A stretch of 64,000 nt of DNA from a virus (lineage: Duplodnaviria; Caudoviricetes). Position 1 is the stretch's first letter. Each line of letters opens with the position of its first letter. Under the pieces are notes generated by a model. That model was not told where the DNA came from. It saw nothing but the letters and a program-made list of their open reading frames with translations, and did no database searches. Positions 180 to 61,100 of the stretch are shown here, piece after piece. The stretch is from IMG/VR virus record IMGVR_UViG_3300030330_004956, positions 1-64,000 of that record. One strand, written 5' to 3'. Made by a program: the position numbers and the translations under genes.

Positions 180-1341
180 AAACATAGAAGAATGTTTATG
201 CTGCGGGAACAGTCAAATCAAGCCATTTTTAGATTTAGGCAAACAGCCATTAGCTAATAATTTAACTGACGCTCCCGGCTTATTAGAGAACGATGGGTAT
301 GAATTAAAAGTTAATTATTGCAATCAATGCTGGCATTCTCAATTATCAATTTCTGTTGATCCAGAATTGCTGTTCAAAGATTACTATTATGTTACCGGCA
401 CATCAAAGACTATGAATGATTATTGTGAAGAATTAGCAGAAGTTATTAACCAAAGAGTAGATAAAACTGATGTTACTATTTTGGATATTGCTAGTAACGA
501 TGGCACTTTTTTAGATAAATTTAATAAATTTGGGTGGAGTTTGTATGGTGTTGATCCGGCTGCGAATTTACAAAAGACTGCATCTGAAAAAGGAATCAAT
601 ACATTTGTGAAATTTTTTGGAGCGGAAGAAGTCAATTTTGGCACAAAATTTGATGTTATAACAGCATTGAATGTATTCGCACATGTACCAGATCCACTGA
701 GCTTTTTAGAAGAGTGTAAGAGGAATTTAACTGAAGATGGGGTTATCGTAATACAGACTAGTCAAAGGAATATGATAGAAGACAGACAATTTGATACTGT
801 GTACCATGAGCATATTTCATTTTTTAGCATATCGTCAATGAGGGCAATTTGTAGTCAAGCAGGATTGTATGTTAATGACATATATTTACCAGATATCCAT
901 GGCGGCTCATACGTGTTTTTTATATCAAGTTCAACGCACAACACAGATAACTTAACTATTGCTTCTGTGAATGAAAAATATCGAGGACGCTACTCTTCTA
1001 AGGCTTATAAAAATTTTCAAACTGATATTTCTAATTTAGCCAAAGAGGTTAAAGAAAAATTTGTGAATGATAAGATGATAGCTTTTGGCGCCGCCGCAAA
1101 AGGCATAGTTGCGTTACACGCTCTGGATTTAAATCCAGAATGCGTAATTGATGAAAATCCACTTAAAATAGGAAAATACTTACCAAAAAAAGATATTCCT
1201 ATATTGTCAATTGATAAATTATCTGAATATGATGAAGATTTGGATATATTAATATTAGCATGGAATTTCAAAAAAGAGATAACAGAGAAGATAAGAAACA
1301 TAAGAGGTAATAGAGACAATTTAATTTGTATATTTCAATAA
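166..1341 (+). CDS. NDP-hexose C-methyltransferase (class I SAM; Methyltransf_13/23/14 architecture)
   Basis: N-terminal Zn site CLCCG...CNQC, LDLGKQPLAN, SAM motif ILDIASNDG, ALNVFAHV, YHEH, HGGS and C-terminal FGAAAKG...LAWNF, as in TcaB9/NovU-type sugar C-methyltransferases. Confidence 0.88.
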   Translation: MSMYKNIEECLCCGNSQIKPFLDLGKQPLANNLTDAPGLLENDGYELKVNYCNQCWHSQLSISVDPELLFKDYYYVTGTSKTMNDYCEELAEVINQRVDKTDVTILDIASNDGTFLDKFNKFGWSLYGVDPAANLQKTASEKGINTFVKFFGAEEVNFGTKFDVITALNVFAHVPDPLSFLEECKRNLTEDGVIVIQTSQRNMIEDRQFDTVYHEHISFFSISSMRAICSQAGLYVNDIYLPDIHGGSYVFFISSSTHNTDNLTIASVNEKYRGRYSSKAYKNFQTDISNLAKEVKEKFVNDKMIAFGAAAKGIVALHALDLNPECVIDENPLKIGKYLPKKDIPILSIDKLSEYDEDLDILILAWNFKKEITEKIRNIRGNRDNLICIFQ

Positions 1342-1355
1342 TAAAGGAGGAAGAA

Positions 1356-1568
1356 ATGGAAACAAATGAAGAAGTGAATACACTACAACTTTCAGATCAA
1401 GCATTGGGGGCAATCATGATGGCTTTGCAAAATAGCCTTTTAAACCAGACAGACATCGTGCCTGTACTCAAGGGGCTAAAGTTGGTGCAACATCCATCAG
1501 ATGGGCTTGTTGTTCTTAATCCGCCAATTTTGCGAACTGGCGAGACGATAGAAACGAGCGTTCAGTAA
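1356..1568 (+). CDS. hypothetical protein (70 aa)
   Basis: AGGAGG SD at 1345-1350 precedes ATG 1356 (preferred over the TTG start at 1326); TAATG coupling to the next gene. Confidence 0.75.
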   Translation: METNEEVNTLQLSDQALGAIMMALQNSLLNQTDIVPVLKGLKLVQHPSDGLVVLNPPILRTGETIETSVQ

Positions 1569-3108: not shown

Positions 3109-5466
3109 ATGTCGAAATTTATACCGTCACCGGATATTCTAAATGGTACACAAAAGAAAAGAGCTAGAAAATCTTTTTCTGATCAGAAAGGCTCTTTATT
3201 TCACGAACTAAAAAAAGTCGTCAAAGAGTCGTATGGTTCTGATGCATTTGCTGGCGTTGGAAATATGCAAGCTATTGTTCTGGCTAAAGTAGACGCCGGC
3301 GATCCATCTAAGCAAGCATGGAAAAACCCACTTACTGCGTATTCTTATCATGTCAAAAACAAAGTGCCAGATTTCATAGAGATCAGATATCGTGTACCTG
3401 AGTTACATGCTCATTTGCCAGAACCCAAAGATGCTAATGATCACAAAGCAATAAATTTACACCCTTTAGCCATAATTAAGAAAGACAAAGGAATACCAGA
3501 AGTCGGAGATATTGTTACTTTAGACTTCGCTGATAAGGTAAATTTCACTGGAGCAATGGTTGTCGAGACTTTTAATTCTGAACAGCCACCCAATGCCGGC
3601 GGCGGAATGTGTAAGCCCGCCGGAACATTTAACTCTGCACCAGCACCATTAAACACTGCTGCACCCACGGGAGACTCCATTGAGCCCGCCGCATCTTCTT
3701 TTGGAGCATCTAATAATCCAGCCCAAGAGGGTTTTGAAAATGGCATAAGATATGATAACTCAGAAGAATACATAAACAGCTTTGATTCCATAACTGGTGA
3801 TTCAAACAAAAGAAAGATAAAAAGAAACATATACATTGTTTCGCTAGATGAGTTTAACTCAATGCCAGATTTTTCAGATTCAAACTCTATCGTAGAAGCA
3901 CTTTCATCTAAGAACGTTTTTTCAGTATGTTTTACTGTGGCTGATCGCGGAATCTTACTGGGAGATCGAATACGCCTACTGTCCATAATCGATAAATTAA
4001 CAGAACATAACTATGATGTTTCTTTGATGGTTCGAGAAAGAAATAAGAACTTCAACAAAGCAATGTTGCATTTATCAAAGATAGCACGAACTGTAAAAGT
4101 TAAAAATATAGTATTTGAACTGGTAGATAATTACACGGAATCTGAAATGTTAAGAATAGACGGAGCTTTCAGAAACTTGAGTGACAGTGTGGGTTGTAAC
4201 TATTGTGCTGTTATAAAAGAAAATTACATAGATTCTTTTCTTCCTAGCCTGCAAGACTATACATTTATAGCAAGCAATAGATATGATTATAGTTTGAGAA
4301 ATTCAAAAGTAACTGATTCAAATGCTGTCCATACAGCCCGAGAAGCGCTTTCGTCTAGATATACAGACAGTATGCCGCTATATTATTTGGGAGGTATCAA
4401 TTTACTTCAGACACCTAATGAGCCATGTGTTGTAGGTACCAGATCGCCAGATATCTTAGCAGACGAAATTGAAGTTTTCAGTACCGCACCCGGCAACGCT
4501 CATTATATGATTGACAATTACAAATTCTTAACAGCAGAATTATCAACAGCAATAATAAGAAATACTACAGGCAATGGAGTAATAGAAGAATCACTAAAGC
4601 AAAGCTTGCTAAATAGTATGTTCACAGACGAAAGTCCAGAAATAGCAAATGTTCGCGACATACAATCAGTCGCAGGTTTAGAAGAGATAGAACAGCCAAC
4701 ATTCAATACAGAAGCTACAGGCTCTCAAGACGCAACACCAGCCCCATCAGCACCCTTTGCTTCAGCACCCGGTGCCGTGTGTCCCGCACAAGCAGGAGGT
4801 TCCCAGCCAGCAGGTGGTGGCGCCCCCGGCCCAGCGGTTCAGGCGCCTTCCTTCCGTTTCGACTCAATCGATAATTATCAAAATCTTGGATGGACTACAA
4901 ATGCTAGCAACGCAATTAATAATGTTATATTTGAGTTCATGGAAAAGCTAAGTGCTGCAATTTACAGACGTATTCCGGCAACTGATCCTATTTTTACAAA
5001 TTCTTCGCCTAAGAAAATAAGACTTACATCTACTGCCAGAACATATGAAAAGCAAGCTTATTTGATGTGGGATAAAATGAGAGCCCAAGGTGATTACGGT
5101 GTTACTTCAATTTACAATGAAAACACAACATGGGTTAAAACCGTTATGAGGACATATCATGAAGGCGGACGTCCGCAAAGTGCCGAGGCAATATATGCTA
5201 ATCCAAAATTTGCAGAAGCTGTTGAAGCAATCCGAGTTAGAGTTGAAGTAGATGGCGGAGGCTCACCTCACCTTAAGGGTAGGGGCGTTGATATACACAC
5301 ATGGAGCCACCTTCAAGCCGAAGGGGTACCTAATGCCCAAAGTGCCACAAAAGCCCAAATGGAGGCTTCTAGATACGTCAGAGCGATTGTCGAGGCTTGT
5401 GCTGAAGCAGGCGGACGCCCAGTTGTAGAAAATTATCAACAACATGTTCACATAAGTATTTTATGA
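3109..5466 (+). CDS. baseplate hub-associated protein: gp5-like N-terminal OB fold plus C-terminal M15 (LAS) Zn peptidase
   Basis: GIPEVGDIVTLDF resembles the gp5/VgrG OB-fold motif; C-terminal TSTARTYEKQ...SPHLKGRGVDI...HVH fits the M15 SxHxxGxxxD...HxH motif; first gene of the baseplate module. Confidence 0.65.
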   Translation: MSKFIPSPDILNGTQKKRARKSFSDQKGSLFHELKKVVKESYGSDAFAGVGNMQAIVLAKVDAGDPSKQAWKNPLTAYSYHVKNKVPDFIEIRYRVPELHAHLPEPKDANDHKAINLHPLAIIKKDKGIPEVGDIVTLDFADKVNFTGAMVVETFNSEQPPNAGGGMCKPAGTFNSAPAPLNTAAPTGDSIEPAASSFGASNNPAQEGFENGIRYDNSEEYINSFDSITGDSNKRKIKRNIYIVSLDEFNSMPDFSDSNSIVEALSSKNVFSVCFTVADRGILLGDRIRLLSIIDKLTEHNYDVSLMVRERNKNFNKAMLHLSKIARTVKVKNIVFELVDNYTESEMLRIDGAFRNLSDSVGCNYCAVIKENYIDSFLPSLQDYTFIASNRYDYSLRNSKVTDSNAVHTAREALSSRYTDSMPLYYLGGINLLQTPNEPCVVGTRSPDILADEIEVFSTAPGNAHYMIDNYKFLTAELSTAIIRNTTGNGVIEESLKQSLLNSMFTDESPEIANVRDIQSVAGLEEIEQPTFNTEATGSQDATPAPSAPFASAPGAVCPAQAGGSQPAGGGAPGPAVQAPSFRFDSIDNYQNLGWTTNASNAINNVIFEFMEKLSAAIYRRIPATDPIFTNSSPKKIRLTSTARTYEKQAYLMWDKMRAQGDYGVTSIYNENTTWVKTVMRTYHEGGRPQSAEAIYANPKFAEAVEAIRVRVEVDGGGSPHLKGRGVDIHTWSHLQAEGVPNAQSATKAQMEASRYVRAIVEACAEAGGRPVVENYQQHVHISIL

Positions 5467-5472
5467 TACTTA

Positions 5473-5482
5473 GATATTTATA
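5473..5482 (+). promoter_or_regulatory. putative late promoter variant GATATTTATA
   Basis: Intergenic before the spike gene; the same GATATTTA variant occurs at 51613-51620 before the portal. Confidence 0.45.
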
Positions 5483-5498
5483 TAGCAGGAGTTAAAAA

Positions 5499-6434
5499 GT
5501 GCCAAAATTTAAAAGTGCCCTTAGTCTAAAAGGCGTAAAGAAAAACTTACAAAAACAATTAGAAGAAAACCCTCTATACAAGCAGGGTGTCATGGGCAAA
5601 GGCGCCGCCGGCGCCAGAACTTCTGAGCCAATTCCATCTTTTGCAGCAGCAGATAGTGAAAAAGTAATAGAAAATGGCACTAACGCTAGTATTGTCTTTG
5701 GGAAAGATCGCCCGGGCTCAAAGCTTTCTGGATACGGAGGAAGAGGTGATGCAGGAGCAGGTACAATTGATATTGTTGCCGGCAGAATGTCACACAGCCC
5801 CGCTAAGGTAAATGATAACGATGAAGACATACAAGCAAATCCAGATTTTAAAATTGATGCATGTCGAATTTATGTAAGTCAAAAAACAGACATTGATGAC
5901 AATTTTGATTTAGTTGACGGTAAACTTGGACGAGCCACTGCCCGAGCCGGAATAGGAATTAAAACGGATGCTCTTCGTTTGATCGGCAGAGAAGGTATAA
6001 AAATTGTAACAGGCACAGACGTAAAAAATTCCACTGGAGAAAATATTGTAAGTGTTGGCGGAATCGATCTTATTGCTGGAAATGACGATAGAGATTTACA
6101 ACCATTAGTTTTGGGTGATAATCTTAAAGAATCACTAAATAAACTATCTGATCATGTTGATAAATTAGCCGGCATCGTACAGTCTGCTATTACGTATCAA
6201 ATGAAGTTTAATGCGAAAACAATGGCACATACACACATAACAGCTTTTTTTGGCACCCCAACCGCACCATCTGATCAGCTTGTGCCAGCCGGCGTGCAGG
6301 TTATTGCCGATCACGGCGGTAAGACAATGTTAGATTTAGTTAAATTTAGAACAAATCTGAAATTTCACAAACAAACTTATTATGCAGTATCCGGTGCGAA
6401 ATATATAAACAGCAGCTTTAACAACACTAATTGA
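5499..6434 (+). CDS. baseplate central spike (gp5 C-terminal/gp138-like)
   Basis: Short beta-strand repeats (IGIKTDALRLIGREGIKIV, GGIDLIAG), QPLVLGD and an HxH tip motif (HTH, 6228-6236) followed by GTPTAP; GTG start with AGGAG SD. Confidence 0.55.
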   Translation: MPKFKSALSLKGVKKNLQKQLEENPLYKQGVMGKGAAGARTSEPIPSFAAADSEKVIENGTNASIVFGKDRPGSKLSGYGGRGDAGAGTIDIVAGRMSHSPAKVNDNDEDIQANPDFKIDACRIYVSQKTDIDDNFDLVDGKLGRATARAGIGIKTDALRLIGREGIKIVTGTDVKNSTGENIVSVGGIDLIAGNDDRDLQPLVLGDNLKESLNKLSDHVDKLAGIVQSAITYQMKFNAKTMAHTHITAFFGTPTAPSDQLVPAGVQVIADHGGKTMLDLVKFRTNLKFHKQTYYAVSGAKYINSSFNNTN

Positions 6435-6441
6435 GGAAAAA

Positions 6442-9400
6442 ATGTCAGACACACCACCAGTCGAAACAGTTGAATCAGGAACAGATGATTCTAGAAATAA
6501 CAATGCAGATCCAAACGTAAATCCAATACCAGAAAGTATTGGCACAACGGTTGATCATGGCGACTCATATAATGTCGAATCGGCATGGGAAGGTGCTACT
6601 CATTTTGTTAGATTTTCTCACGTTTCGGAAGAAAAGAGTGATGATGTAGTAGTGCCTTTGTACGATACTTTATCTAGGCAAAGAGAGGCGATCAAAAATA
6701 TTCCCGGTGACGGAAGTATACAAGTTAAGGTTATTGATTCGAATGTTGGGCAAAGCTGGGCAGAAAGTAAAGTTCTTTTGGAGAGCGATGAAAAAGAATA
6801 TTATGTCAATTCTGTTTATCTGTTTCCAGTCAACGGGATATCAAATTTAGCTTTTTATTCTCCCGAAGATGCAGATTTGTTTGTAGATAGCAGTAGAGAA
6901 ACAAAGATTAAAGATGCAAAAGAAGCCGAGCCATATGATGAAAAAAATCATTATAATATAGTGTTAGATGCTGGTACTTTAAGTAAAGAAGAATATGGGG
7001 CAAATTTAGCAGATCTAAAGAGAAAGGCAATATGCCAATTAATAGAACATTATGGTAAAAAGAAATTATCAAGTGCTGATATAGACTCACTTATTGAAAA
7101 TCCATTTGGACTAATTCAGAGTTCTGAACCATATTTTCCACTCCGCCCGGGACAAAACATAAAGACTAAAATTACAATTGCCAAAAAATATTTAAATCAA
7201 TTAGAAAACAAAACATTTGATGATTTTGCAATAGAAAATATACATAAAGATTTTATAGCCGTATCCATAAAAGCATCAGATATTACTAAAGATATCAATA
7301 AGCTTATCAAGATATTAGAAAAATATGACAAACAAATATCCGGATTTGCAGGACATATTGAAGGGCTAGATATGAAGGTTATCATATCGAAACTAAGATC
7401 TTTCATTTCAGAATTTAATAAATTTTTAAAACTGAATGGAACTACATTAGATAGCTCTGGGGATACTAAGTTTGAGCTTGGGTTTGACAAGTCAACATAT
7501 AAATTAAATTATGTTATGCAATTTACTCCATATGGCACTTTCTTGCCAATTGGTATTGGTTTGTTGGCTTGTAAATTTGATGCCAAGGTGGGAAAGCTAT
7601 TAGTAAGATTGAAAGACGTTTTCTCTGCATCCGCCGGCGGGACAGCATGGATGGGATTCTGCACTGATTTCTTCGCAGGTGACATCAAAATTAATTTCAA
7701 GATGCCTTCTGAAATTTTCGACACTGCCAAGATACCGTTCTCAAAATTAGAAATGAATATGGATAATCTTAAAGCAGACTTTGGTGAACTAAAGTTTATG
7801 ACACCGGATGATGCAGCAAGTTTAGTTTCTATGACTAATAGTTCGCAATTTAGAGTGACTGCCTCTGAATTGTTACTTAGATCAAGAGACTTTATCGGAG
7901 ATCAGTTTCTAGTTGACTTGCCAAATATTCTCACTAACGTAGATGATTTACCTTCATTATATGGCTTAGTTTTTGATAAAGTTTCGGTTAAAGATTTGCT
8001 TGATTTGGTTATGGAGCAAGCAGCCACTGAACTTAACCTGCCAGATATTAATGAAATTAAATTAAGAGGAATATTACAGGCTTTGGATTTTGAAATTGTT
8101 TTAGATATATTATTCGATAGACTGCCTACTGTGGATCTAGAATTAATTTTGGCTTCAATTTGTGATTCCACTACAATGACAGCTCAAATGTTCGATCAAC
8201 TGACTAGCTCTCTTACATCGATCCCAATGGTTGATCTTTATATGATCCACTTCAAAGACGATGGTACGCTGGGTGGTTTGTTAGCAGATCACTACGATGG
8301 TGATTTATTATCTGCCCTGTCAGAAAGAAATTTAAATTCTTGTGAGACTCTTGGCGTTGCAATTGCTACTGGAACGTTTGATATCAAAGATTATTATCAA
8401 GAATCTACGTATAGAAAAATGCTTTGTCAACTATTGACAGATGGACTACCCGAATACCAAAACCCATGTCCAGAATTGACAGAAGTAATCGAAAACGTAT
8501 TAGGCATAGGAGCCAGTCCTTTGATTACTATTCCGGGCGGATTAAAACTTCCTTCAGTGTCTTTTAGTGGTATAAAGATTAATATCTTAAATTTTCTTAA
8601 AGGGCTTGACAAGTCCATGGTAATGCCATCGATCGATCTTCATATGAAAGATTTATTTAAAACAGGGGCTAACGCAATGTCTTTGGAATTGAGCGGAGAG
8701 CTTCCCCCTGCTGGAGTACTAACTCCAGATGAATTGTTTGCCAAATTTTCAGAAATACCAGAAATAAAATTACAACTTGATAAAATTTCTTTAACAAAAG
8801 GTAAATTAACTGGTAAGATACCCGGCTTACCTTTGGATTTTGAAATGAAAAAGATAGATGCAGACTTCACACTTCCATCAATAAAAGACTGTAATCCTAG
8901 TTTTGATTTTGGTAAATTTCAATTTTCCGGAATGCAAGACATATTTTCCGGAGCTATTGGGGGAATAGAGTCTGCGCTCATTCAAGGTATTGAAGCTGGA
9001 TTGGTTGGTGCATTCAAAGTTATATTAGAAGGCGTCCTCGATTCAGTAAACATGAACCCACCAAATATAGATGCTCCAGATTTTGGAGGATTAAGTCTGC
9101 CTGATTTGATGGATGCCTCTGATGGATTTTCTGCCGAAGCATTTGAAATGATCGTAACCGACGTATTATGTTCAGCAGTTGGCAAATTTGATATTAAATT
9201 TTTTGAAGAATGTAATGTGTGTGAAGAATTGCAAGATCTGGCTGGATATTGCCCAGAAGAAGAAGATACAAAAAAAGCATTAGAAGATATGTCATCTGCT
9301 GTTAAGCCTTTAGAGTTAACAAGAATGCTGAAGGGACAAAGAAACAAAAAAGATTTTGAAAATATGCGAGCAGCCATAACTGATCCCAAAATAAAGCAAG

Positions 9401-14238: not shown

Positions 14239-14253
14239 ATATAAGCGAACGCT

Positions 14254-43402: not shown

Positions 43403-43405
43403 ATT

Positions 43406-48057: not shown

Positions 48058-48071
48058 ATGTAGGAGTTAAC

Positions 48072-49097: not shown

Positions 49098-49480
49098 AGA
49101 TAAAAAATCCAGACAAGATTGCACAATTTGAAAAAGCAATAAAGAAAAAGTATGGATATGATGCTATAAAAAATCCAAACGCAGGATGGGATGACGAAAA
49201 AGAACAAGAGTATCTTGAGTCTACCAAGAAATTTCAAACTAAAGTCTCCAAGTATCATGAAGACAATGATTTAGTAGAAGTTGATGGATTTTTAATGCCA
49301 AAAAGACTACTTAATAGTGAAAGTAATAGAACTTGCCCAGTATGCTCAACATACTCATTCGACAAAGGAGACGACTTTTATATGAACAAATTTGATTGTT
49401 GTCAAAATTGTTTTATTAAATACGTTGATGGAAGAGAAGAAAGGTGGCAAGCAGGCTGGCGCCCCAACAAGGAGAAATAA
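49094..49480 (+). CDS. C4 zinc-finger hypothetical protein
   Basis: CPVC...CCQNC; GTGA overlap with the upstream gene. Confidence 0.65.
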   Translation: MKIKNPDKIAQFEKAIKKKYGYDAIKNPNAGWDDEKEQEYLESTKKFQTKVSKYHEDNDLVEVDGFLMPKRLLNSESNRTCPVCSTYSFDKGDDFYMNKFDCCQNCFIKYVDGREERWQAGWRPNKEK

Positions 49481-49481
49481 A

Positions 49482-50033
49482 ATGGCTACAACATTAGAAA
49501 TAGTAAGAGGAATTCATCAAGCAGCAGCTAATGCTTATGATGGTTCACACGATGAAAGGTTTGCAGGTGAAGACTTGGCAGCAAAAGCTGGGCTTCGTAG
49601 GGAAGAGGGTTGTGCAATTAAGGACTCTCGCGTTATTGACGGCTTTAATGTAAAGATTTCTGGAAATGAGTTGCACATTATTTACCACACAGAGTGTACA
49701 TCAAAGAATGCTCACCGCACCTCTTTGGTTTCTGATATTGAGCAAAACATTGCCGATATTGTAAAGTATCTTAAATCAGAATATAAGAAAGTAGCAGAAG
49801 GAACTTTGTCCTTGTCAAACGCTTCAGAAGTTGATATTGATATGCAATATATCTCCAGACAAAGAGTTTCAATTATCGCAAGGCAATCATTTGAGTTGGG
49901 CGGAACTGATGCAGAACCTAACACACCAGAGTCTTCTGAGGATAGGTTGGATAAATCCATTAAAGACTTTTTATCTATGGGCAGAGAAGACGCCAAGAAG
50001 CCGTCAAATTATACAGCAAAAAATGAGAGCTAA
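49482..50033 (+). CDS. hypothetical protein upstream of the terminase
   Basis: AAGGAG SD before ATG 49482; TAATG coupling to terL. Confidence 0.7.
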   Translation: MATTLEIVRGIHQAAANAYDGSHDERFAGEDLAAKAGLRREEGCAIKDSRVIDGFNVKISGNELHIIYHTECTSKNAHRTSLVSDIEQNIADIVKYLKSEYKKVAEGTLSLSNASEVDIDMQYISRQRVSIIARQSFELGGTDAEPNTPESSEDRLDKSIKDFLSMGREDAKKPSNYTAKNES

Positions 50034-51628: not shown

Positions 51629-51631
51629 GAT

Positions 51632-53614
51632 ATGGCTGATAACAAGAAAAACCCAAGAAACCCGCAAAGCAATCTCTATAAGAGATTGACTAGATTACTA
51701 TCAACACCGATTGTTAATAGGCGCACTCAACTACAAAGACGCTATCGTCGTGCAGACATGGATAAGTATAACTTCAATTCTGCTCAAGGGTTGGACTTTA
51801 AGAAAACATCATACAACCCATACGACAACATGACTGCAAATATTATGCAGCAGCAAAATCGTTATGAAAGGTATATTGATTTTGATCAGATGGAATATAC
51901 TCCAGAGATTGCCTCTGCGCTAGACATATATGCAGACGAAATGACGACATCAACCAATCTTTCACCTATGTTGAAAATCAAATGCTCAAACGATGAGATA
52001 AAATTAGTTTTAGATAATCTATACAACAACATCTTGAACATCGATGCCAATTTGTTTGGCTGGAGTCGTTCACTTTGTAAGTTTGGTGATTTCATGCTTT
52101 ACTTGGATATTGATGAGACGACAGGGATCAAAAACGTGATCTCATTGCCAATTGATGAAGTTGAGAGACTGGAAGGTGAGGACAAAACAAACCCAAACTA
52201 CATTCAATATCAATGGAACTCAGGCGGTTTGACTTTTGAAAACTGGCAGGTTGCTCATTTTCGAGTGCTTGGCAATGACAAATATGCTCCATACGGCACA
52301 TCAATTCTTGAGCCCGCCCGACGAATCTGGCGCCAACTGACTTTGCTTGAAGATGCAATGATGGCATATCGCATTGTGAGATCCCCAGAACGCCGAGTGT
52401 TTTATATTGATGTGGGTAACATCGCACCTCAAGATGTTGAGCAGTTTATGCAGAGAGTTACCACACAAATGAAAAGAAATCAACTAATTGATTCTTCTAC
52501 CGGACGCGTCGATTTGAGATACAATCCGCTTTCGATTGATGAAGACTATTTCATTCCTGTTCGCGGCGGAAACTCATCAAGAGTCGAGTCCCTTCCCGGT
52601 GGTTCATATACCGGTGACATTGACGATGTAAAATATTTGCGTGATAAATTATTTTCTGCACTCAAGATACCAATGTCTTACCTGTCAAGAGGTGATGGAC
52701 AGACGGAAGATAAAGCCACGTTAGCGCAGAAAGATATTCGCTTTGCAAGGACTATTCAAAGACTTCAGCGCTCTGTAGTTTCAGAACTCGAAAAGATAGG
52801 TTTGGTACATCTTTATACTCTAGGTTATCGAGGCGATGATCTGATATCTTATAAATTAGTTCTAAACAATCCCTCAAAGATATCTGAACTTCAAGAGCTT
52901 GAACATTGGAAACAAAAATTTGATATTGCTGGTGCAGCCACAGAAGGCTTCTTCTCTAAACGTTGGATCGCAGAGCATGTTCTTGGCATGTCTGATGAAG
53001 AGTTCTTGCGTAATCAAAGAGAAATGTTTTATGATAAGAAGTTTACTTCCATGCTTGAAAAAGCCGCAGAAGAGGTACCCGCTTCTTCGCCTGATACTGG
53101 CGCCGCCGGCGGACTTGGCGGCGGAGGCGGCTTAGATCTTGGTGGGGGTGATGATGCTGGTGGGGGCTTAGATCTCGGCGGCGCCGATGACAAGGGCGGA
53201 GGCTTAGATCTTGGTGGCGATACCGCTGCCGGTGGCGATGACAAGCCTGCTGATGCTGGTGCCGACGACAAGCCCGATACGGCTCTCTTGGCAGCACCCG
53301 GTAATCGTCCCGAAAATCCCAAAATGGATAAGTACGGCGACATAAAGAAAAAACGTGGTGACGGCAAAGGACGCAGAAAAGTTAAAAGAACTAAAGATTC
53401 TGAAGCTGGACGCGCCGCCAGAACAAATAGTACAAGAGCGGTGACGGATCCAATTAAAAGAATGTTTCAAGATCCAGCCGGCTCAATTATGAGAACGGTA
53501 TACGAAGGCGAAACAAATGATATGTACCATAAAGAAGAAAAGCAACTATTTAATGTTAGCCATGATTTAAAAATACTATTAGAAAGTATGGAGCCTAATA
53601 AAGATGAAGTATAA
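51632..53614 (+). CDS. portal protein (T4 gp20-like)
   Basis: PEIASALDIYADE, EDAMMAYRIVRSPERRVFYIDVGN, EDYFIP, LPGG...DIDDVKYL, LKIP, KDIRFAR. Confidence 0.95.
   Translation: MADNKKNPRNPQSNLYKRLTRLLSTPIVNRRTQLQRRYRRADMDKYNFNSAQGLDFKKTSYNPYDNMTANIMQQQNRYERYIDFDQMEYTPEIASALDIYADEMTTSTNLSPMLKIKCSNDEIKLVLDNLYNNILNIDANLFGWSRSLCKFGDFMLYLDIDETTGIKNVISLPIDEVERLEGEDKTNPNYIQYQWNSGGLTFENWQVAHFRVLGNDKYAPYGTSILEPARRIWRQLTLLEDAMMAYRIVRSPERRVFYIDVGNIAPQDVEQFMQRVTTQMKRNQLIDSSTGRVDLRYNPLSIDEDYFIPVRGGNSSRVESLPGGSYTGDIDDVKYLRDKLFSALKIPMSYLSRGDGQTEDKATLAQKDIRFARTIQRLQRSVVSELEKIGLVHLYTLGYRGDDLISYKLVLNNPSKISELQELEHWKQKFDIAGAATEGFFSKRWIAEHVLGMSDEEFLRNQREMFYDKKFTSMLEKAAEEVPASSPDTGAAGGLGGGGGLDLGGGDDAGGGLDLGGADDKGGGLDLGGDTAAGGDDKPADAGADDKPDTALLAAPGNRPENPKMDKYGDIKKKRGDGKGRRKVKRTKDSEAGRAARTNSTRAVTDPIKRMFQDPAGSIMRTVYEGETNDMYHKEEKQLFNVSHDLKILLESMEPNKDEV
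53101..53283 (+). repeat. GC-rich low-complexity repeats (GGLDLGG x3, DDK x3) in the portal C-terminal extension
   Basis: ggcttagatct(t/c)gg occurs three times; Gly/Asp/Ala-rich coding. Confidence 0.8.
53545..53552 (+). promoter_or_regulatory. putative late promoter ACTATTTA
   Basis: Within the portal 3' end, 59 nt before ATG 53604. Confidence 0.45.
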
Positions 53615-54392
53615 TAAAAAAAGAAACACAGCATTTTTGTATGAATCGTTGGTGCTGGAAATGACAAAAGCAATTGTTAACAATGACAACAAAAGAAGAG
53701 ACATTGCTTTGGATATATTGAAAGAAAATTTTCACTCAAACTCTCTTTTGCACAAAGAGCTAGATGCATATAAAGCAGTCCTAGAAACTAAAAATGTAGA
53801 CGTTACTACTGCAAATGTAACTCTCCGCGAAGCTACAAGAACTTATCTTTCTCTTCACCCGGGACATGTGTTTCGAGATCAAACTCATGTAATAAACAGA
53901 GTGAACAAGGAATTGGGAAAAGATACATTTAATATTTTTACGCCAAACTATAAATCTTTGGCAACCATATCTCAATTGTTCAGCGTGAAGACACCAGTAA
54001 AGCGCCGCGTCATTTTGGAAAAAAACTTAATTGACGAAATGACTAGTACCGATTCTGGCATGGACATGCAGCCGATCGACAATGTGGTTTACAATGTGTT
54101 TGTGAAAAAATTCAATGAAAAATATGATGCTCTCTTGGAAGAACAAAGAGACTTGTTATATAAATATATCTTTTCTTTCGCAGATGATGGGTATGGATTG
54201 AAAATAGCGATGAACGAAGAAATTTCTAGAATGAAAAAAGTCATCACTACCAACAAACAAGAAGTACCAGAACTTAAAGAAAAGTTTGAATCATTAGAAG
54301 GGTTACTTAGTTCTTTTTCTAAGAAAAGTATAGATGACGACATGGTACTGAAAGTGTTGCAAACACAAGAATTTTGCAAGGAATTAGAATAA
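53604..54392 (+). CDS. putative head-assembly protein following the portal
   Basis: MKYNKKRNTAFLYESL; helical; located in the head module with ACTATTTA upstream. Confidence 0.7.
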   Translation: MKYNKKRNTAFLYESLVLEMTKAIVNNDNKRRDIALDILKENFHSNSLLHKELDAYKAVLETKNVDVTTANVTLREATRTYLSLHPGHVFRDQTHVINRVNKELGKDTFNIFTPNYKSLATISQLFSVKTPVKRRVILEKNLIDEMTSTDSGMDMQPIDNVVYNVFVKKFNEKYDALLEEQRDLLYKYIFSFADDGYGLKIAMNEEISRMKKVITTNKQEVPELKEKFESLEGLLSSFSKKSIDDDMVLKVLQTQEFCKELE

Positions 54393-54962
54393 ATGTCTAT
54401 TAATGTTTTAGTTGGCGATAAGGCGATCAAGAGAGATGCTAATCAACTTAGAGATTACACTTTCTCTCTAGATATTCGTCAAACTTTGGGTGGTGATTAC
54501 GTTATATACGATCACCCAGACATTGATATTGTTGTTATGCCTAAAATGAAAAAAGTTGTTGCTTTCCCGAAAGACAAAATATCAGAAGTAACTTATGACA
54601 CAGAGTCTAGACTTTTTGACTTTCTGACTAAAAAGGGAGTTATTGCAAGAGATTCAGTACAATCTGGAAATGTATACGCATCTTTGCAGGGACTTTTCGA
54701 AGAGCCGAAAAAGCCGCAAGAAGGTGAGCCAGTAGATCCGATTCAACCTGTTATATTCACTATTGCTAAATTTATAGAAAACGAGCGCCCCCGCTACGAA
54801 TATGTGAAAAAGATGGAAGAAGAGGAAGAGGAATATTACACTCAAGCAACTGATGATAACTCAACTGAGTTGGGGGAAGTTCCGCATGCCAGAGAAAAGG
54901 GCAGCATTCGCCCCGGTATTTACTATCAAAATTATATGCACCACGGCTATTACAACAGATAG
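54393..54962 (+). CDS. hypothetical protein
   Basis: 189-aa ORF abutting the upstream stop; acidic tract. Confidence 0.7.
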   Translation: MSINVLVGDKAIKRDANQLRDYTFSLDIRQTLGGDYVIYDHPDIDIVVMPKMKKVVAFPKDKISEVTYDTESRLFDFLTKKGVIARDSVQSGNVYASLQGLFEEPKKPQEGEPVDPIQPVIFTIAKFIENERPRYEYVKKMEEEEEEYYTQATDDNSTELGEVPHAREKGSIRPGIYYQNYMHHGYYNR

Positions 54963-54970
54963 GAGTAAAA

Positions 54971-55279
54971 ATGCAGTTATTATGGTTTGTCCTAGCATCC
55001 TATGGACTAACTCAGATTCTAGTTTATGGATCTATTTTTAAGTGGCTTAGAAATCGTACTGGTAAAATTGGAGAATTATTTAGCTGTCCAATGTGTACAG
55101 GATTTTGGGTTGGCGTTCTTTTATTCTTCCTAAACGGTTTTACAGAACTATTTACTTTTGATTATAATCTAGCAAATTTATTAATTTGTGGCTGGCTGTC
55201 ATCTGGCACATCATATATATTCTGTACTGTATTCGATGACAACGGAATCAAAATCGAGAGGAAGAAAAATGAATATTAA
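54971..55279 (+). CDS. DUF1360-like membrane protein
   Basis: Hydrophobic helices around GELFSCPMCTGFW; AGGAG SD. Confidence 0.7.
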   Translation: MQLLWFVLASYGLTQILVYGSIFKWLRNRTGKIGELFSCPMCTGFWVGVLLFFLNGFTELFTFDYNLANLLICGWLSSGTSYIFCTVFDDNGIKIERKKNEY

Positions 55280-55406
55280 AATTTCTAAAAAGAGAGCTAG
55301 AAAGATATTCCAAGAAGAGATCGAAAAGTTTTTACTGGAAAACAAAAACGTTGATCCTAAAATTCTGAGAGAATATGTAGAGAACCACATCAAGGAGAGT
55401 AAGTGA
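55269..55406 (+). CDS. small putative prohead/core protein (45 aa)
   Basis: MNIKISKKRARKIFQEEIEKFLLE...ILRE contains (I/L)xE motifs typical of prohead-protease substrates; GAGG SD. Confidence 0.5.
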   Translation: MNIKISKKRARKIFQEEIEKFLLENKNVDPKILREYVENHIKESK

Positions 55407-55407
55407 T

Positions 55408-55461
55408 ATGTTTAAAAGATGGATGATACAGCCTGTTAGGCGATGCAAGAATGGATGTTGA
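55408..55461 (+). CDS. candidate 17-aa micropeptide MFKRWMIQPVRRCKNGC
   Basis: Fills the gap between 55406 and 55464 exactly; AAGGAG at 55392-55397. Confidence 0.35.
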   Translation: MFKRWMIQPVRRCKNGC

Positions 55462-55463
55462 CT

Positions 55464-56075
55464 ATGAGTAAAGTTTTATTAAGAGAATATTATGAATTGT
55501 GTGAAGGTGGGCAATGCCAAGATCTTCTGACAGAATCCGAAAAGAAATATGTTGCTAATGGTGGCATGATTCTTGTTGGCAAGCTTCAAGAAGCAGAAGT
55601 ACAAAATGGAAATGGTAGAGTATATCCTAGAAAAATTCTAGAGAGAGAAATGAAAAATTATCAAATGCTTGTGAAAGATAGAAGAGCATTAGGCGAACTC
55701 GATCACCCGGATGACTCGATCATTAATCTCAAAAATGCTTCACATATGGTTACGGAGGCATGGTGGGATGGTAATAATGTTATGGGTAAAGTTAAAGTAC
55801 TTAATACTCCGAGTGGTAAAATCCTTAAACAACTTGTCGATGATGGTGTCAAGCTCGGTATTTCTAGTCGCGCTCTTGGTTCCGTCAATGAATCTGAAGG
55901 GCAAACCGTTGTCCAAGAAGATTTACAGCTTATTTGTTTTGATTTTGTTAGCGAGCCTTCTACTCCTAATGCTTTTATGGCACTTCAAGAAGCCAAAAAC
56001 ATACGAATCGAAACAGACATATTCGATAAAAAATACAAGCTAAACAGAATGTTGAATGAGATTTTAGAGGATTAA
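55464..56075 (+). CDS. prohead core protease (T4 gp21-like)
   Basis: NGNGRVYP, ALGELDHP, ASH, TPSG, GISSRALGS, DFVSEPSTP. Confidence 0.93.
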   Translation: MSKVLLREYYELCEGGQCQDLLTESEKKYVANGGMILVGKLQEAEVQNGNGRVYPRKILEREMKNYQMLVKDRRALGELDHPDDSIINLKNASHMVTEAWWDGNNVMGKVKVLNTPSGKILKQLVDDGVKLGISSRALGSVNESEGQTVVQEDLQLICFDFVSEPSTPNAFMALQEAKNIRIETDIFDKKYKLNRMLNEILED

Positions 56076-56513
56076 ATGAATAAAAAAGAACTAAAAAAGC
56101 TTATGAAGCCAATTGTAGAAGAGTGCATCCGCGAAGTATTACTTGAAGAGGGTGTGCTTTCTACTATTATATCAGAAGTTGTAAGGGGTACTTCTGGGCT
56201 GGTTGTGGAACAAAAAGCGCCCCCACAAAACACAAGGCAGTTGCAATCTGAGGATGAGACAATGCTTAGGTTACAAGAAAGAAAAGCCCAAACAAATCAA
56301 CGAAGAAAGAATTTGATGGACGCAATCGGAAAAGATGCCTACGGCGGTGTTGATTTGTTCGAAGGAACTCAGCCCCTAACACGTCATCAGGCTGAATCTT
56401 CTGGTGCCGAGTCTGGACAAGGTGCTCTTTCGGGTTATGCACCAGATGACGCGGGCGTTAATATTGACGGATTGTTAAATATTGCGGGCGGCGCATGGAA
56501 AAAAATTAAATAA
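56076..56513 (+). CDS. putative head/core protein
   Basis: MNKKELKKL...IREVLLEEG (IxE/LxE motifs), adjacent to the protease. Confidence 0.6.
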   Translation: MNKKELKKLMKPIVEECIREVLLEEGVLSTIISEVVRGTSGLVVEQKAPPQNTRQLQSEDETMLRLQERKAQTNQRRKNLMDAIGKDAYGGVDLFEGTQPLTRHQAESSGAESGQGALSGYAPDDAGVNIDGLLNIAGGAWKKIK

Positions 56514-56546
56514 TTGATAATTATAAAGGAATAGAGGAATTAAATA

Positions 56547-57023
56547 ATGTCTTTAACAACATCACAGCATATCTATTCTTCCAGAGGAAGAACGAGACAA
56601 CCAAAAAATTTATACAAGCCATACCACGAATCGGTAGCAATCGCAAAAGCTAGTGGATCAGTTACCATAGTTTCAGCAGCCAATAAACTAAGTGACACTT
56701 TAGATACTGGCTCGGCTGGCGGAAATGGGTACGACACTCAAAACCAAGATAATTTACATTTATGTATCCGCACAACTGGCTCATCAACCGGCTCATTTCA
56801 AGTATATGCATATAATAGAAGTTTCGGAACTTGGGGATTATTAAAAGTGCCCGTAGCAATCGGAGCATCAGCAAAAACAGAAGCCGCATATGTACCAGTT
56901 GAATTTACAGGTTCAGCCTCAACTACGGAGTATGTGGTGGTTCCAATTCATGGTATTGACAGGGTAGCCTTTGTTGGCACACCAGAAGACACTATTCTCT
57001 ATGCCGCCGGCAGCACACTATAA
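56547..57023 (+). CDS. putative virion surface protein
   Basis: 158-aa beta-rich, S/T/G-rich ORF with GAGG SD. Confidence 0.6.
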   Translation: MSLTTSQHIYSSRGRTRQPKNLYKPYHESVAIAKASGSVTIVSAANKLSDTLDTGSAGGNGYDTQNQDNLHLCIRTTGSSTGSFQVYAYNRSFGTWGLLKVPVAIGASAKTEAAYVPVEFTGSASTTEYVVVPIHGIDRVAFVGTPEDTILYAAGSTL

Positions 57024-57034
57024 TAGGATTTTAA

Positions 57035-57247
57035 ATGGCAAAAGGAAGTAACATCAAAGTGACTCCAAGAAGGAGAGAGTCACAAGACAGAATGATCAGA
57101 AGGTTCATTAAGAAATGTAAGAAATCAGGCATTATTGATGAAGCAAAGGAGCGCCGCTTCTATAAGAAGCCGTCTGAAAAACGCAACGAAAGAAACATTA
57201 AAAGACGCAGAGCTTTATCAAAAGCAAAAGAAAAAGGCAAAAGATGA
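57035..57247 (+). CDS. rpsU: ribosomal protein bS21 (phage-encoded)
   Basis: ESQDRMIRRFIKKCKKSGII...RRFYKKPSEKR matches the bS21 consensus (ESxxxxLRRFKK...G...RxxYEKPSxxR). Confidence 0.88.
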   Translation: MAKGSNIKVTPRRRESQDRMIRRFIKKCKKSGIIDEAKERRFYKKPSEKRNERNIKRRRALSKAKEKGKR

Positions 57248-57255
57248 ACTATTTA
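57248..57255 (+). promoter_or_regulatory. putative late promoter ACTATTTA inside an 11-bp inverted repeat
   Basis: Immediately after the bS21 stop, 39 nt before ATG 57287. Confidence 0.65.
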
Positions 57256-57286
57256 TTTCTGAAAAGTATAAATGAGGAAATAGTTC

Positions 57287-58111
57287 ATGTCAAATACTAA
57301 AAATTATGGTTGGGCATATGTCCACCCAACTGCTTCTCAGGCACAAGCCAGAGGCGTAGACAAATCAATTCAATTTTTAACTGGTGCAGTTGACTCAAAT
57401 GGTATTGGACTCGGCTCTGGTTCAGCCAAACTAACATTTGATTACGCACCCGCAACCCCAGTGCTAAGGCTAAGTGGAAACATGACAGCCAGTGGACACG
57501 TTTCAGCATCTGCGTTTTTTGGAGATGGCACTGGTTTGGAAGGGGTATCTTCTTTTCCATTTAATGGGAATGCCGTGATCAATGGAAACTTAAATGTAAC
57601 TGGCTCTATCACGGCTTCTAACTATATTATACAAAACACTCTAGAGTTGAACAATGCTGGCTCATCACAGTTTGGTAATACTGCTGGCGATACTCATGTA
57701 TTTTCCGGATCCGTTTCGGTACATTCTGGCACATTCACTATACTGAGTGGAAACGTACCAAGTGTTAGGTACAACAACTTAACAGAGCAACTTAAGATTG
57801 TTTCATTACGCGTAGGTTACAAGCCAGTAGCTGCCACAACTTACACAGCCAGTGTGAGTGATTATATCATAGGCGTTCAGAACACTAATGCTGTTACGAT
57901 TAGACTTCCGAATGCCGCAACGGCTGGATCGGGCTCTATTTTGGTTATCAAAGACGAGGTAGGAAACCCTAGAGCCAACCCAGATGAAATAACCGTTTCT
58001 GCAAGTGCTGGACAAACTGTTGATGGTGCTGCCCATAATACACTTGGTGTTGGTACATTGGTGTCTGCAAAATTGTTCTCAAATGGTAATACGAAATGGT
58101 TTATAATTTAA
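57287..58111 (+). CDS. fibre-like virion protein
   Basis: Beta-helix repeats (GNMTASGHVSAS, GNLNVTGSITA), FFGDGTGL, and a C-terminal DYII...TIRLP...VIKDE...IDG-like...SNG..W module. Confidence 0.7.
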   Translation: MSNTKNYGWAYVHPTASQAQARGVDKSIQFLTGAVDSNGIGLGSGSAKLTFDYAPATPVLRLSGNMTASGHVSASAFFGDGTGLEGVSSFPFNGNAVINGNLNVTGSITASNYIIQNTLELNNAGSSQFGNTAGDTHVFSGSVSVHSGTFTILSGNVPSVRYNNLTEQLKIVSLRVGYKPVAATTYTASVSDYIIGVQNTNAVTIRLPNAATAGSGSILVIKDEVGNPRANPDEITVSASAGQTVDGAAHNTLGVGTLVSAKLFSNGNTKWFII

Positions 58112-58120
58112 GGTGGTTTT

Positions 58121-61100
58121 ATGTCTTACAACACTCTCAGCGGTACAATTCAAGGCCCAAACAAGATAATAGCAAAAAAAGATGGCACTTTCACACAAAT
58201 AACAGGATCGGTATCCGGTTCATTTGTTAATGCAAGTGGCACATTAGTTTCTTTTGCTTCAATTGGTACTGTTGGGGGATCCGGCGGAGCAATCGGAGAA
58301 TCCGAAGATGGCTCATATGCAGATGGACTTTTCACAGATTTTACAACTGGCACCATGGTTGGCGTTGTGCTGGACAGATACAACGAAATATTTAAATCTC
58401 TAGTCCCACCACCAGCGCCAAATCTTAGCAGAGCATTTACTGCACAAGACGGAACTGATGTGCGCTTATCTTTCGGTGCATCTAATGATATGGAGTCTGA
58501 TGGCACTCCATATTATTCTGTAACCACATCAGCAGGCGGTACCGCCGTGGACAAAGGTGAATTATATGGAACCCAGACTTTTGGAAACAATTTTAGAATA
58601 GCAGCATTCCAAGGTACCACTGCGATCACCGGCGTCATCAATGATCAAGTCACTGCTTCAGTCTTGGGTTCGTACACAAATTATGTTGCTAATGCTTTCG
58701 GCAACGCCAACACCGGCACATTAGCTCTTTACATTAATAGCACTTCATCCGCAGCACATACTTTAAATTTAGCCACAGCAACAGGGACAGGGAACCCGGG
58801 CTCTGGTAATAGCTCATCGCTGAATGCAGACGGGAGCGGCTTTATAAAGGTGTCAATAGCTAAAAATGCAACCGATGCCAACAATAATAGTTTTGATATC
58901 TTTAAACACAGGACTGCAAACTTTGTTGTAAATCCTGCATCGCAGAGAATGGGATGGAATTATGCATATGTTAAACACACTGTTGGATCCGCAAATTATA
59001 CATCCAACTTTATTGAATGGGTTAATGATGCAAACGCCGTTACCCCAACCATAACCAGCCAAGCAATTACGGGAATTACTTTAAATGGCTCAAGGTATTT
59101 ATCAGGAGTGCAGTACAATTTAAGCGCGTCAGCAGATTATTCTTTTTTGATATCGCATTTTTATAAAAATGTCTATCTCAATGCAAGTGTCATTTGCGTC
59201 GATCTCAATGGTAGAGCTACTATTACCGACACAACTATGCCGCACATAGGAGCCGACGATGAAAATAAAACAGTTGCCCTTACACAATCATTGGAAACCA
59301 ATGTGCCTACAATTTTAAATGCCACTGTTGGCGCCCAAGCATCTGTAAGTCATATTTTCAAAGGAACGGCGAATGCAAATACGAGCGTATCCGGGTTTTT
59401 AATTTATACGCCCACGAGTAATAATCCTACTAACACTGTAGAATACTTTAGAAACGAAAAATACAGATTACCTTCCGGCTCACACGACGCTCAGGGAACA
59501 ATCGCAACGAGTAGCTGGACAAGCGCAACCCATATGACTGGCTCCGGTACACACGCAGACGGGCTAATTATTTACAACGAAGCTCTCAGATCACCAAAAC
59601 AGGGAGCAAACGGAGGAAACTTTGCAGCAATTGCAAACACAGAATCTGGTAATCCGGATTACTCTTCTGTGACTGGTGTGAGAACATTTTACAGAGCATT
59701 TAAAAATACTGGCGCCGCCAAGCAAGATGTTTCCATAACAATCAACGGCACCGGAACAATTGTTTCAAACGGCGCTGAATTAGGAGCCAATAATAAGATT
59801 AGAGTTCTGGTTAAAACACCCGGCAAAACTGGATGGATGAATTTGGCAGACGCATATAGTCATCCTAACTTATCTGACGGTGCTGGCGCCAGAGAGACTA
59901 ATTTTGATTCTTCCTTAAACGCTACAAATATTGTTACTTTGGGCGCAAAAGCGGTTGCAACTAATGAATGGTTTTTGGTTAAAATTGAAGCGCATGCAAA
60001 CTGGACAGGAAATATATCCCAAATCTCTGTAACTTTTGGCGCTGGTACTGGAGGAATTACCAATCCCTCAAATTTGAGCCAGCTAGATGAAACAATGGCA
60101 AACAATGGCTCCAATGCTGATTTATCTTTTGGAGCCAGCAAGCCAATCGCTGGTTATACATCTGCTACAGGCACTCCTAGCATCAATGGTGCTGTAGATC
60201 TCAACGGATTATGGGAGCCAAACACTGGATTTGATAACCAGAGGTTGGGCGTTTATGATAAAACATTTAATATAACTGGAAAGTTAAATTCTGTCATCAC
60301 ATCTGCTAGACTTTCCGATGCGCATACTGGTTCATTGGAATTATACATCAATGGCGCTTTACGACACACAGTAAACTTAAACTCTTATGGCGACGGTAAC
60401 ACACTAAACTCTTCTGGTTCAGGCTTCCAAAGCTTATCTGCTGTCAAGTATCCGAAATTCGGAAATCAAGTTAGCGATTATACTAAGCCATACAGAACAG
60501 GATCTGTGATAGTAGATGCTGATGATCAGCGAGACGGCTGGAATTTTGCCAGAGTGAAACATAGCGGTACTTTTGGGGAAAGAACTTCAACATACATTGA
60601 GTGGATGAACGATAGTAATGCCTCTACCATTTCTGTCGCCGGCGGTAACATTTCCAATTTTAATAATTCTAATGTCTTTTATAGTTCTGGCATCAAAAGT
60701 TTCAGAAATCCACCGACTGCATCTTTTACTTTAACTTCTTCTAATAATTATCTAAACACTTATGACGGAGATCCCGCTAATGCAATAGACTTCAATGATA
60801 GTTTGACAAATGTGACAATATCTGCAATGACTGCCTCCGGCGCCGGTATCAATGATTTGACAGATTCGAATGGAGTATCAGGATATCCCACTCTAAACAC
60901 TACAACTAATTCACAAACTGCTAGTGTAAATTACAATTTAACTTTATCTTTTACTCCTAGCTTTTCTTTGGTAGGCGCCTTCGTAGGTGGCGCAGCAATT
61001 CACACTGCCAGTATTGGCTCCGCTAAGTTCCTACAGCCACCGGTGAATGGCAACAACAATACTTATTCTACATTCACAACTTCTGATTTTACTAGTTTTT

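Follow-up and report, generated by a model that had tools for sequence, protein, structure and literature searches.

The first 64 kb of an uncultured marine phage genome (IMG/VR record IMGVR_UViG_3300030330_004956, positions 1 to 64,000, hereafter the window) carry a strong excess of two palindromes, GGCGCC and GCCGGC, which occur 38 and 30 times where base composition predicts 3.4 copies of each. A first-pass annotation of the window, made from the letters alone, had likened these sites to the highly iterated palindromes (HIPs) of cyanobacteria and had proposed that a methylase and repair system of the phage or its host creates them, or that they serve as recombination or packaging signals. 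In this study, we show that the excess is real, robust to codon usage and of DNA-level origin, while its making by a methylase and Vsr-type repair, or its use as a signal, is largely unsupported. The HIP label fails most of its defining tests. The excess is not specific to the two words and seems to be the most conspicuous part of wider sequence biases that a whole family of phages has in common. We see an even chance that neither palindrome is functional in itself and that both mark the point where several biases of a marine T4-like phage lineage add up.

Results

The window belongs to a virus record of 184,889 bp, estimated to be 98% complete, with a portal and a large terminase of T4 type. 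By portal, the nearest cultured phages are Flavobacterium phage immuto and Microcystis phage Mel-JY01, at only ~40% amino-acid identity; a megablast of 10 kb against cultured phages gave no match. Base composition is 38.7% G+C. According to our own longest-open-reading-frame (ORF) calls, among which small genes are possibly miscalled, nearly all genes lie on the + strand and the coding density is 95%. Comparisons were made with related loci from IMG/VR, 65 after removal of redundancy and with 701 kb of coding sequence in all, and with T4, S-PM2 and Flavobacterium phage immuto as control phages, Mel-JY01 being used in addition for palindromes.

Genome-wide, GGCGCC is present 73 times and GCCGGC 58 times against 11.7 expected from base composition, which corresponds to observed/expected ratios of 6.2 and 5.0 and to densities of 395 and 314 sites per Mb. 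Order-2 Markov expectations are 18.7 and 24.7, and GGCGCC has the highest order-2 z-score of all hexamers in the genome; at order 4 the expectations are 54.8 and 41.9. The first-pass annotation had counted at least 38 GGCGCC by eye, which is exactly the number in the window, with a site at each coordinate it gave. It had expected about 2-3 from base composition, slightly below the 3.4 found, and its figure of about 25 for GCCGGC was right as to the excess but too low as to the count. Its claim that RCCGGY is over-represented as a class does not hold, since there is no enrichment beyond GCCGGC itself (ACCGGC 1.24x, ACCGGT 1.23x, GCCGGT 0.54x). Every one of the 131 sites in the genome falls within coding sequence; the ~8 kb of non-coding DNA contain none. 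The excess is evenly spread along the core genes and has no orientation, palindromes having none. No extended flanking consensus surrounds the sites; GCCGGC is nearly never preceded by G or followed by C (1 of 58 each) because GGCC is purged from the genome. A block at 120-150 kb, outside the window and made up of ~70 small genes, is exceptional: it holds 2 sites against 5.9 expected, its all-G/C hexamers stand at 0.88x, it has no palindrome excess, and its G+C content at third codon positions is 0.43 as against 0.32-0.39 elsewhere. Early or accessory genes with a fast turnover probably make up this region.

About 85% of the sites are in frame, 62 of the 73 GGCGCC reading GGC-GCC (Gly-Ala) and 52 of the 58 GCCGGC reading GCC-GGC (Ala-Gly). 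These are by far the commonest all-G/C codons of the genome. GGC accounts for 30% of the codons for Gly and GCC for 20% of those for Ala, unusually high shares for an AT-rich phage (4-14% and 5-9% in T4, S-PM2 and the Flavobacterium phage); phages with low GGC/GCC usage have few sites, at or near their low expectation. When synonymous codons were permuted inside each gene, the codon usage of the gene being kept, 24.7 +/- 4.8 GGCGCC and 28.0 +/- 5.2 GCCGGC were expected in the genome, and 10.4 and 11.3 in the genes of the window as against the 38 and 30 observed. Protein sequence and codon usage thus raise the expectation for GGCGCC from 12 to ~25, and the two shuffle expectations explain a doubling but not the full excess. 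Counted as codon pairs, GGC-GCC is found 62 times against 18.9 expected and GCC-GGC 52 times against 20.4. Nulls that preserve the codon usage of genes are conservative if the same process has also raised GGC/GCC usage. A shuffle within windows of 30 codons gives an expectation of 42; it mostly regenerates the original sequence and was therefore not relied on.

Codon choice in this genome is further shaped by the purge of many short words. GACC/GGTC is missing from all 184,889 bases, against ~294 + 268 copies expected in coding sequence. It is missing as well from the closest relatives (portal 82-94% identical; L003, L005, L007-L009, L011, L012, L021), while distant relatives have normal counts. 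CCWGG, CTGCAG, GAGGAG/CTCCTC, GAGCTC, GTGCAC, CTCGAG, CACGTG, GTCGAC, CGTACG, TGGCCA and GGGCCC have zero copies genome-wide, and CAGCTG (2), AGGCCT (1) and CGGCCG (1) are rare. GGCC retains 54 copies, 36 of them within CGGCCC/GGGCCG, as though selection hits only A/T-flanked GGCC. We therefore built a constrained null, a Markov-chain shuffle that swaps synonymous codons and never permits purged words to increase. It expects 30.9 +/- 4.8 GGCGCC and 29.1 +/- 5.1 GCCGGC in the genome, so that a 2.0-2.5-fold excess (z ~8) is left after codons and purge. Avoidance alone is thereby rejected as the cause: the purge reroutes codon choice, and barring the purged words lifts the expectation for GGCGCC merely from 25 to 31, a small part of the excess. 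It does account for most of a parallel excess of GACGTC, for part of that of GGTACC and for much of that of CCCGGC. The first-pass annotation had considered that the excess might disappear under a codon-pair-aware null; it persists in synonymous and constrained shuffles alike, with observed/expected values of 2.0-3.1 across the codon-aware nulls. As a separate observation, words resembling Shine-Dalgarno sequences are avoided inside genes on the coding strand (GAGGAG 0 vs 58 expected, GGAGG 0.49x, AGGAG 0.54x), where G runs are depleted and the complementary C runs enriched.

The residual excess does not depend on reading frame. In the genome, GGCGCC is found 62, 5 and 6 times in frames 0, 1 and 2 against 25.4, 2.2 and 2.2 expected (2.4-, 2.3- and 2.7-fold), and GCCGGC 52, 0 and 6 times, in agreement with the earlier remark that GGCGCC occurs in more than one frame. 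Frames 1 and 2 together hold 11 GGCGCC against 4.4 (Poisson P = 0.006). Across the 65 relatives the fold excess by frame is 1.73/1.76/1.78 for GGCGCC and 2.04/3.65/1.52 for GCCGGC, with 60 against 33.9 and 41 against 20.4 copies in frames 1 and 2. An equal fold excess in three frames places the cause at the nucleic-acid level and not in one codon pair. The association of GGC with a following GCC is 3.0 at a lag of one codon, ~1.4 at lags 2-4 and 1.0 beyond, and this short range excludes gene-to-gene or long-range heterogeneity of codon usage. Low complexity rich in Gly and Ala, or slippage, was rejected too, since isolated Gly-Ala and Ala-Gly dipeptides still yield 11 against 3.7 and 12 against 4.8 sites (~3-fold for Gly-Ala). 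Where relatives conserve the dipeptide, the same codon pair recurs at a rate no higher than that of control pairs (11 of 80 and 4 of 51 comparisons), and the dipeptides at the sites are frequently not conserved themselves; ancestral sites persisting in slow-evolving patches are thus ruled out. Local hairpin stems do not explain the excess, as merely a handful of sites qualify, and neither does tRNA supply by the phage, which encodes six tRNAs and none for Gly or Ala.

Two broader biases surround the two words. All-G/C hexamers as a class stand at 1.46x in the genome and at 1.30x in the relatives. Without GGG/CCC, the non-palindromic all-G/C hexamers number 526 against 361 under the constrained null, and GCGCCC, CCGGCG, CGGCGC, CGGCGG and others reach 1.6-2.2x, the range in which many non-palindromic words of the relatives fall. 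At synonymous sites the probability of GGC with 0-3 G/C neighbouring bases climbs through 0.24, 0.29, 0.33 and 0.49 and that of CGC from 0.28 to 0.51, a gradient that is also present in the relatives and flat in T4, S-PM2 and immuto. The second bias concerns self-complementarity. Perfect palindromes centred elsewhere than on the two words stand at 0.97x (6-mers), 1.12x (8-mers), 1.29x (10-mers) and 1.62x (12-mers) in the genome and at 0.98x, 1.11x, 1.26x and 1.25x in the relatives, as compared to 0.87-1.10 in T4, the Flavobacterium phage and Mel-JY01; AT-rich long palindromes are enriched too. Inverted repeats with 5-nt arms stand at 1.32x with spacer 0, at 1.2-1.3x with spacers 1-3 (1.26x over 0-3) and at ~1.16x with spacers 4-12, while controls of the same composition give 1.05x (mirror repeats) and 1.10x (complement repeats). 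The DNA-level, frame-independent origin implied by the first-pass annotation is borne out, whereas an origin specific to palindromes is not, non-palindromic all-G/C words being enriched as well. A generic trait of AT-rich T4-like phages was rejected, since T4, S-PM2 and immuto have neither the all-G/C excess nor the context gradient, and their GGC/GCC usage is low. Mel-JY01 was considered as a second case (L083, positions 1-50000) and rejected: its all-G/C hexamers, 645 against 271, come from collagen-like genes with Pro-Gly repeats (CCCGGG, CCGGGG), and GGCGCC and GCCGGC are both at 0 there against 2.0 and 3.9 expected. Our best reading is that the G/C-context and self-complementarity biases are particular to this phage family.

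The excess of the two words is family-wide and occurs in loci with and without the GACC purge; in the GACC-containing loci it amounts to 236 against 130 and 232 against 115, early totals that contain near-identical loci, as do part of the all-G/C word figures for the relatives. One locus, L077, has no GGCGCC (4.5 expected) and 13 GCCGGC (4.8 expected), which suggests that individual lineages purge one of the two words under restriction. The set of missing words differs from relative to relative. L058 is without CCWGG, CTGCAG, GGCGCC and GCCGGC, and L042 and L045 are without GGCC; GAGCTC is nearly missing throughout the family (L002-L081), with 8 copies in 829 kb of coding sequence where 133 would be expected. 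Restriction-avoidance profiles so clearly different imply different hosts among the relatives.

As noted by the first-pass annotation, over-represented palindromes are known from cyanobacteria, and the two words coincide with published alternate HIPs, GGCGCC in Calothrix PCC 7103 and rCCGGy in Oscillatoria PCC 10802 (Elhai 2015, PMC4390886). Alternate HIPs are tied to matching methylases and reach 1000-2000 sites per Mb, related GrCGyC words are depleted in Calothrix, and methylation-dependent repair has been proposed as their origin in both strains (PMC4390886). Observed/expected ratios for HIPs are 15-fold or more (PMC4390886; in part PMC5861425). The search for C5 methylase and Vsr genes that had been suggested was run on the 98%-complete phage genome and found neither (PF00145, PF03852), a result that covers the phage and not its host. 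Dam (two families), N6_Mtase, HhH-GPD glycosylase and uracil-DNA glycosylase (UDG) gave no match in the phage genome either. A phage G:T glycosylase is rejected as the cause for want of HhH-GPD and UDG, as is a 7-deazaguanine modification of DNA at GGC motifs for want of TGT/DpdA and QueC. The genome does encode one methylase, of the beta class of N6A/N4C enzymes, at 108392-109345, outside the window. The C-to-T neighbours of the two words are not depleted (GGTGCC 1.28x, GGCACC 1.18x, GGCGTC 0.89x, GACGCC 0.97x, GCTGGC 1.13x, GCCAGC 1.35x).

Sites and genes in the window

The 38 GGCGCC of the window (exact count, span 1087..60979) lie inside + strand genes, mostly as GGC-GCC for Gly-Ala, and begin at 1087, 4819, 4842, 5601, 5610, 9667, 9676, 11074, 11769, 12325, 13360, 13606, 14017, 18640, 18940, 20488, 20623, 23875, 26950, 27553, 27652, 28681, 29489, 33843, 37217, 37455, 40615, 45673, 47791, 49458, 52329, 53099, 53180, 59330, 59711, 59885, 60839 and 60974. 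The 30 GCCGGC (exact count, span 3295..63789), mostly GCC-GGC for Ala-Gly, begin at 3295, 3595, 5607, 5778, 6168, 6288, 7633, 12952, 16192, 16381, 19591, 20485, 20626, 23872, 25914, 26338, 27826, 30787, 32601, 33786, 42845, 42872, 45484, 51215, 53105, 53477, 57006, 60638, 61106 and 63784. Close spacing is frequent: 8 intervals between sites of either word are below 10 nt, where 0.9 would be expected, and 12 are shorter than 30 nt against 2.7. The densest case is a composite cluster on the + strand at 5601..5615, GGC GCC GCC GGC GCC, in which two GGCGCC and one GCCGGC overlap in frame in ORF 5499-6434 and which could fold into a hairpin (6-bp stem, 3-nt loop). At 9667..9681 (+ strand) two GGCGCC separated by AAA encode Gly-Ala-Lys-Gly-Ala in frame in a 2598-aa ORF. 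Further + strand pairs are two GGCGCC with 17 nt between them (4819..4847) and two GCCGGC with 21 nt between them (42845..42877). The words overlap as GCCGGCGCC at 20485..20493 (+ strand), with like overlaps at 20623-20631, 23872-23880 and 53099-53110.

Two giant ORFs, at 6442-14238 (2598 aa) and 17977-33702 (5241 aa), hold 8 and 10 GGCGCC against 1.6 and 2.5 expected. The first ORF of the window (166-1341), which adjoins very large virion genes, encodes a three-domain C-methyltransferase of the sugar C-methyltransferase type (Methyltransf_13/23/14) and no DNA methylase. At 44890-48057 a single 1055-aa ORF fuses an Mre11-like phosphoesterase domain with a Rad50/SMC-like ATPase, the counterpart of which in T4 is two separate genes (gp47, gp46).

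Discussion

Four biases that the data show meet at GGCGCC and GCCGGC. The common use of GGC and GCC codons makes Gly-Ala and Ala-Gly the places where the two words are the likeliest all-G/C hexamers, which takes the expectation for GGCGCC from 12 to ~25. By barring C after GGC and G before GCC, the purge pushes these codons next to each other and brings the expectation to ~31. A synonymous C in core genes is likelier amid more G/C, and all-G/C hexamers as a class are ~1.5-fold in excess. Self-complementary arrangements of any composition are enriched 1.1-1.6-fold, increasingly with length. The product, 31 x 1.46 x ~1.5, is ~68, near the 73 GGCGCC observed, as arithmetic and not as a fitted model. 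The last two biases may in turn stem from neighbour- or template-dependent substitution bias in the replication, recombination or repair of the phage, for instance slower loss of C:G inside G/C runs, or strand-switch events that perfect quasi-palindromes. Core genes, long resident in the lineage, would have been exposed to such a bias for a long time. We hold this replication-, recombination- or repair-linked origin of the G/C-context and self-complementarity biases with moderate confidence, and we do not believe that selection favours the sites. More tentatively, it is possible that the marine T4-like family has an intrinsic DNA-level process which writes self-complementary and G/C-only words into long-resident core genes; context-biased repair or a template-switching step of replication or recombination would be examples.

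Several points weigh against this reading. The class and palindrome factors in the product above may overlap. The step to a substitution bias is an inference, and the relatives are only ~70-77% identical in DNA, so that substitutions cannot be polarised. A uniform DNA bias should mark the 120-150 kb block too, yet there is no excess there, an exception that fits only if the genes of the block are recent arrivals or of fast turnover. Under the constrained null GGCGCC and GCCGGC have the second and third highest z among well-populated hexamers, which points to a possible word-specific component, and the phage shows no enrichment of further all-G/C palindromes (GCGCGC 0.78x, CGCGCG 0.3x).

Pairing within transcripts, by which GC-rich self-complementary words would be favoured as stabilising mRNA structure in long late and middle messages, is in line with the surplus of inverted repeats over mirror and complement controls at spacers 0-12, with some non-palindromic all-G/C words being about as enriched as their reverse complements on the coding strand of relatives, with the surplus of intervals below 30 nt and with the lack of excess in the small-gene block. 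Six-base palindromes without a gap are unable to fold back on themselves, and yet it is at spacer 0 that the excess is largest; the all-G/C hexamer pairs capable of forming hairpins number 22 against 13.3 +/- 3.8, so that few of the 131 sites can be stems; we consider such pairing unlikely. Rather improbable, in our view, is a HIP-like system, in which GGCGCC and RCCGGY would be marked by a methylase of the host or the phage and near-cognate words turned into the palindromes by mismatch repair or very-short-patch repair that depends on methylation. The identity of the words with published alternate HIPs (PMC4390886) and the frame-independent excess in the genome and its relatives speak for it. 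The marking enzyme could be the beta-class methylase or an enzyme of the host. It is countered by the phage having none of the genes searched for (C5 methylase, Vsr, Dam, N6_Mtase, HhH-GPD, UDG), by C-to-T neighbours that are not depleted, and by a density 3-5 times lower and an enrichment of 2-6-fold where HIPs show 15-fold or more. Moreover, non-palindromic all-G/C words and AT-rich long palindromes share the enrichment, and the excess spans relatives whose differing restriction-avoidance profiles imply different hosts. Independence of frame and codons is thus the HIP property found, density, fold and palindrome specificity being those not found; of the marks of Vsr repair, the genes are absent from the phage and the words derived from the target are not depleted. 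The proposal that a phage methylase and repair system creates the sites finds little support here.

A cause in translation, with GGC-GCC and GCC-GGC as favoured codon pairs or with optimal codons clustered at important Gly/Ala positions, would agree with the 85% of sites in frame, with the surplus of the two codon pairs (62 vs 18.9, 52 vs 20.4) and with the way in which Gly/Ala codons ending in C or T tend to agree with the adjacent codon (odds ratios 3.8 and 6.2 vs a median of 1.2). The effect is nevertheless not confined to the in-frame pair, as codon-pair bias would have it: the fold is equal in frames 1 and 2, in which the word is spread over three codons and CGC or GCG is used. The sites also sit at poorly conserved protein positions, and the phage lacks a tRNA for Gly or Ala. 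Published surveys reportedly place nnCGCn among the generally avoided codon pairs, which counts against translation as well, and we find this cause very unlikely. Functional DNA sites, whether bound by dimeric proteins, serving recombination or packaging, or acting as decoys for restriction enzymes of the two-site kind (type IIE; NarI and NaeI, for example), are most improbable. In their favour, the hexamer is the enriched unit, with one-off variants (AGCGCC, TGCGCC, GGCGCA) near expectation; the two words have among the highest z of all hexamers under the constrained null; and relatives that have one word not at all and are rich in the other (L077) indicate that something sees the words. Against this stand the even spread over core genes, the positions not conserved among relatives, the lack of any extended or flanking motif, the restriction of 131 of 131 sites to coding sequence with none in ~8 kb of non-coding DNA, and the enrichment of the whole all-G/C class, for which such sites cannot account. 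Nor is there the conserved position, clustering or orientation relative to genome ends or replication that marks Chi-like, pac or cos sites, and recombination or packaging signals, as once suggested for the window, are hence unlikely; a Chi-like GCTGGTGG was rejected with just 4 and 3 copies on the two strands.

The genomes of phages are usually read as avoiding palindromes owing to host restriction. Here a dozen palindromes and several short words are completely erased, two other palindromes stand at 2-3 times their codon-aware expectation, and the family as a whole is mildly enriched in palindromes and G/C runs of a general kind. A full-text search of a collection of papers for GCCGGC and GGCGCC with phage found nothing relevant. 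If a mutational or repair bias intrinsic to the phage is the cause, oligonucleotide signatures would have an origin not recognised before, with a bearing on k-mer host prediction, on the inference of restriction pressure and on the origin of cyanobacterial HIPs, and the palindrome content of phages would reflect creation besides restriction-driven removal. If, as we think most likely, nothing more is at work than codon preference, context bias and motif purges in combination, the case is a warning that a striking palindrome count can arise without methylase or signal function.

Comparison with known systems

With the alternate HIPs of cyanobacteria the phage shares GC-rich palindromic words over-represented in all frames, next to many other palindromes that are depleted. 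It differs in its 3-5 times lower density, in its 2-6-fold enrichment, in GACGTC at 1.27x, in that no matching cytosine methylase was found in the phage, and in being a virus and not a cell. Very-short-patch repair by Vsr, acting with Dcm in E. coli, raises CCWGG and lowers its T:G-derived neighbours. It likewise is a DNA-level process able to enrich the target word of a methylase in every frame; in the phage, by contrast, there is no Vsr or C5 methylase gene, TG/CA neighbours are not depleted and CCWGG is wholly absent.

An excess of local secondary structure is known in bacterial coding regions, and quasi-palindrome mutagenesis by template switching was reportedly discovered in phage T4. From either one, inverted repeats and perfect palindromes would be expected to outnumber those of synonymous shuffles, as observed here; neither is known to make gap-free 6-mers markedly more frequent. 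The 50 kb of T4 that were tested have no such excess. The palindrome avoidance of virulent phages, finally, is present in extreme form in the same genome, as its zero-count words attest. GGCGCC and GCCGGC depart from it in the opposite direction, while some relatives appear to purge one of the two.

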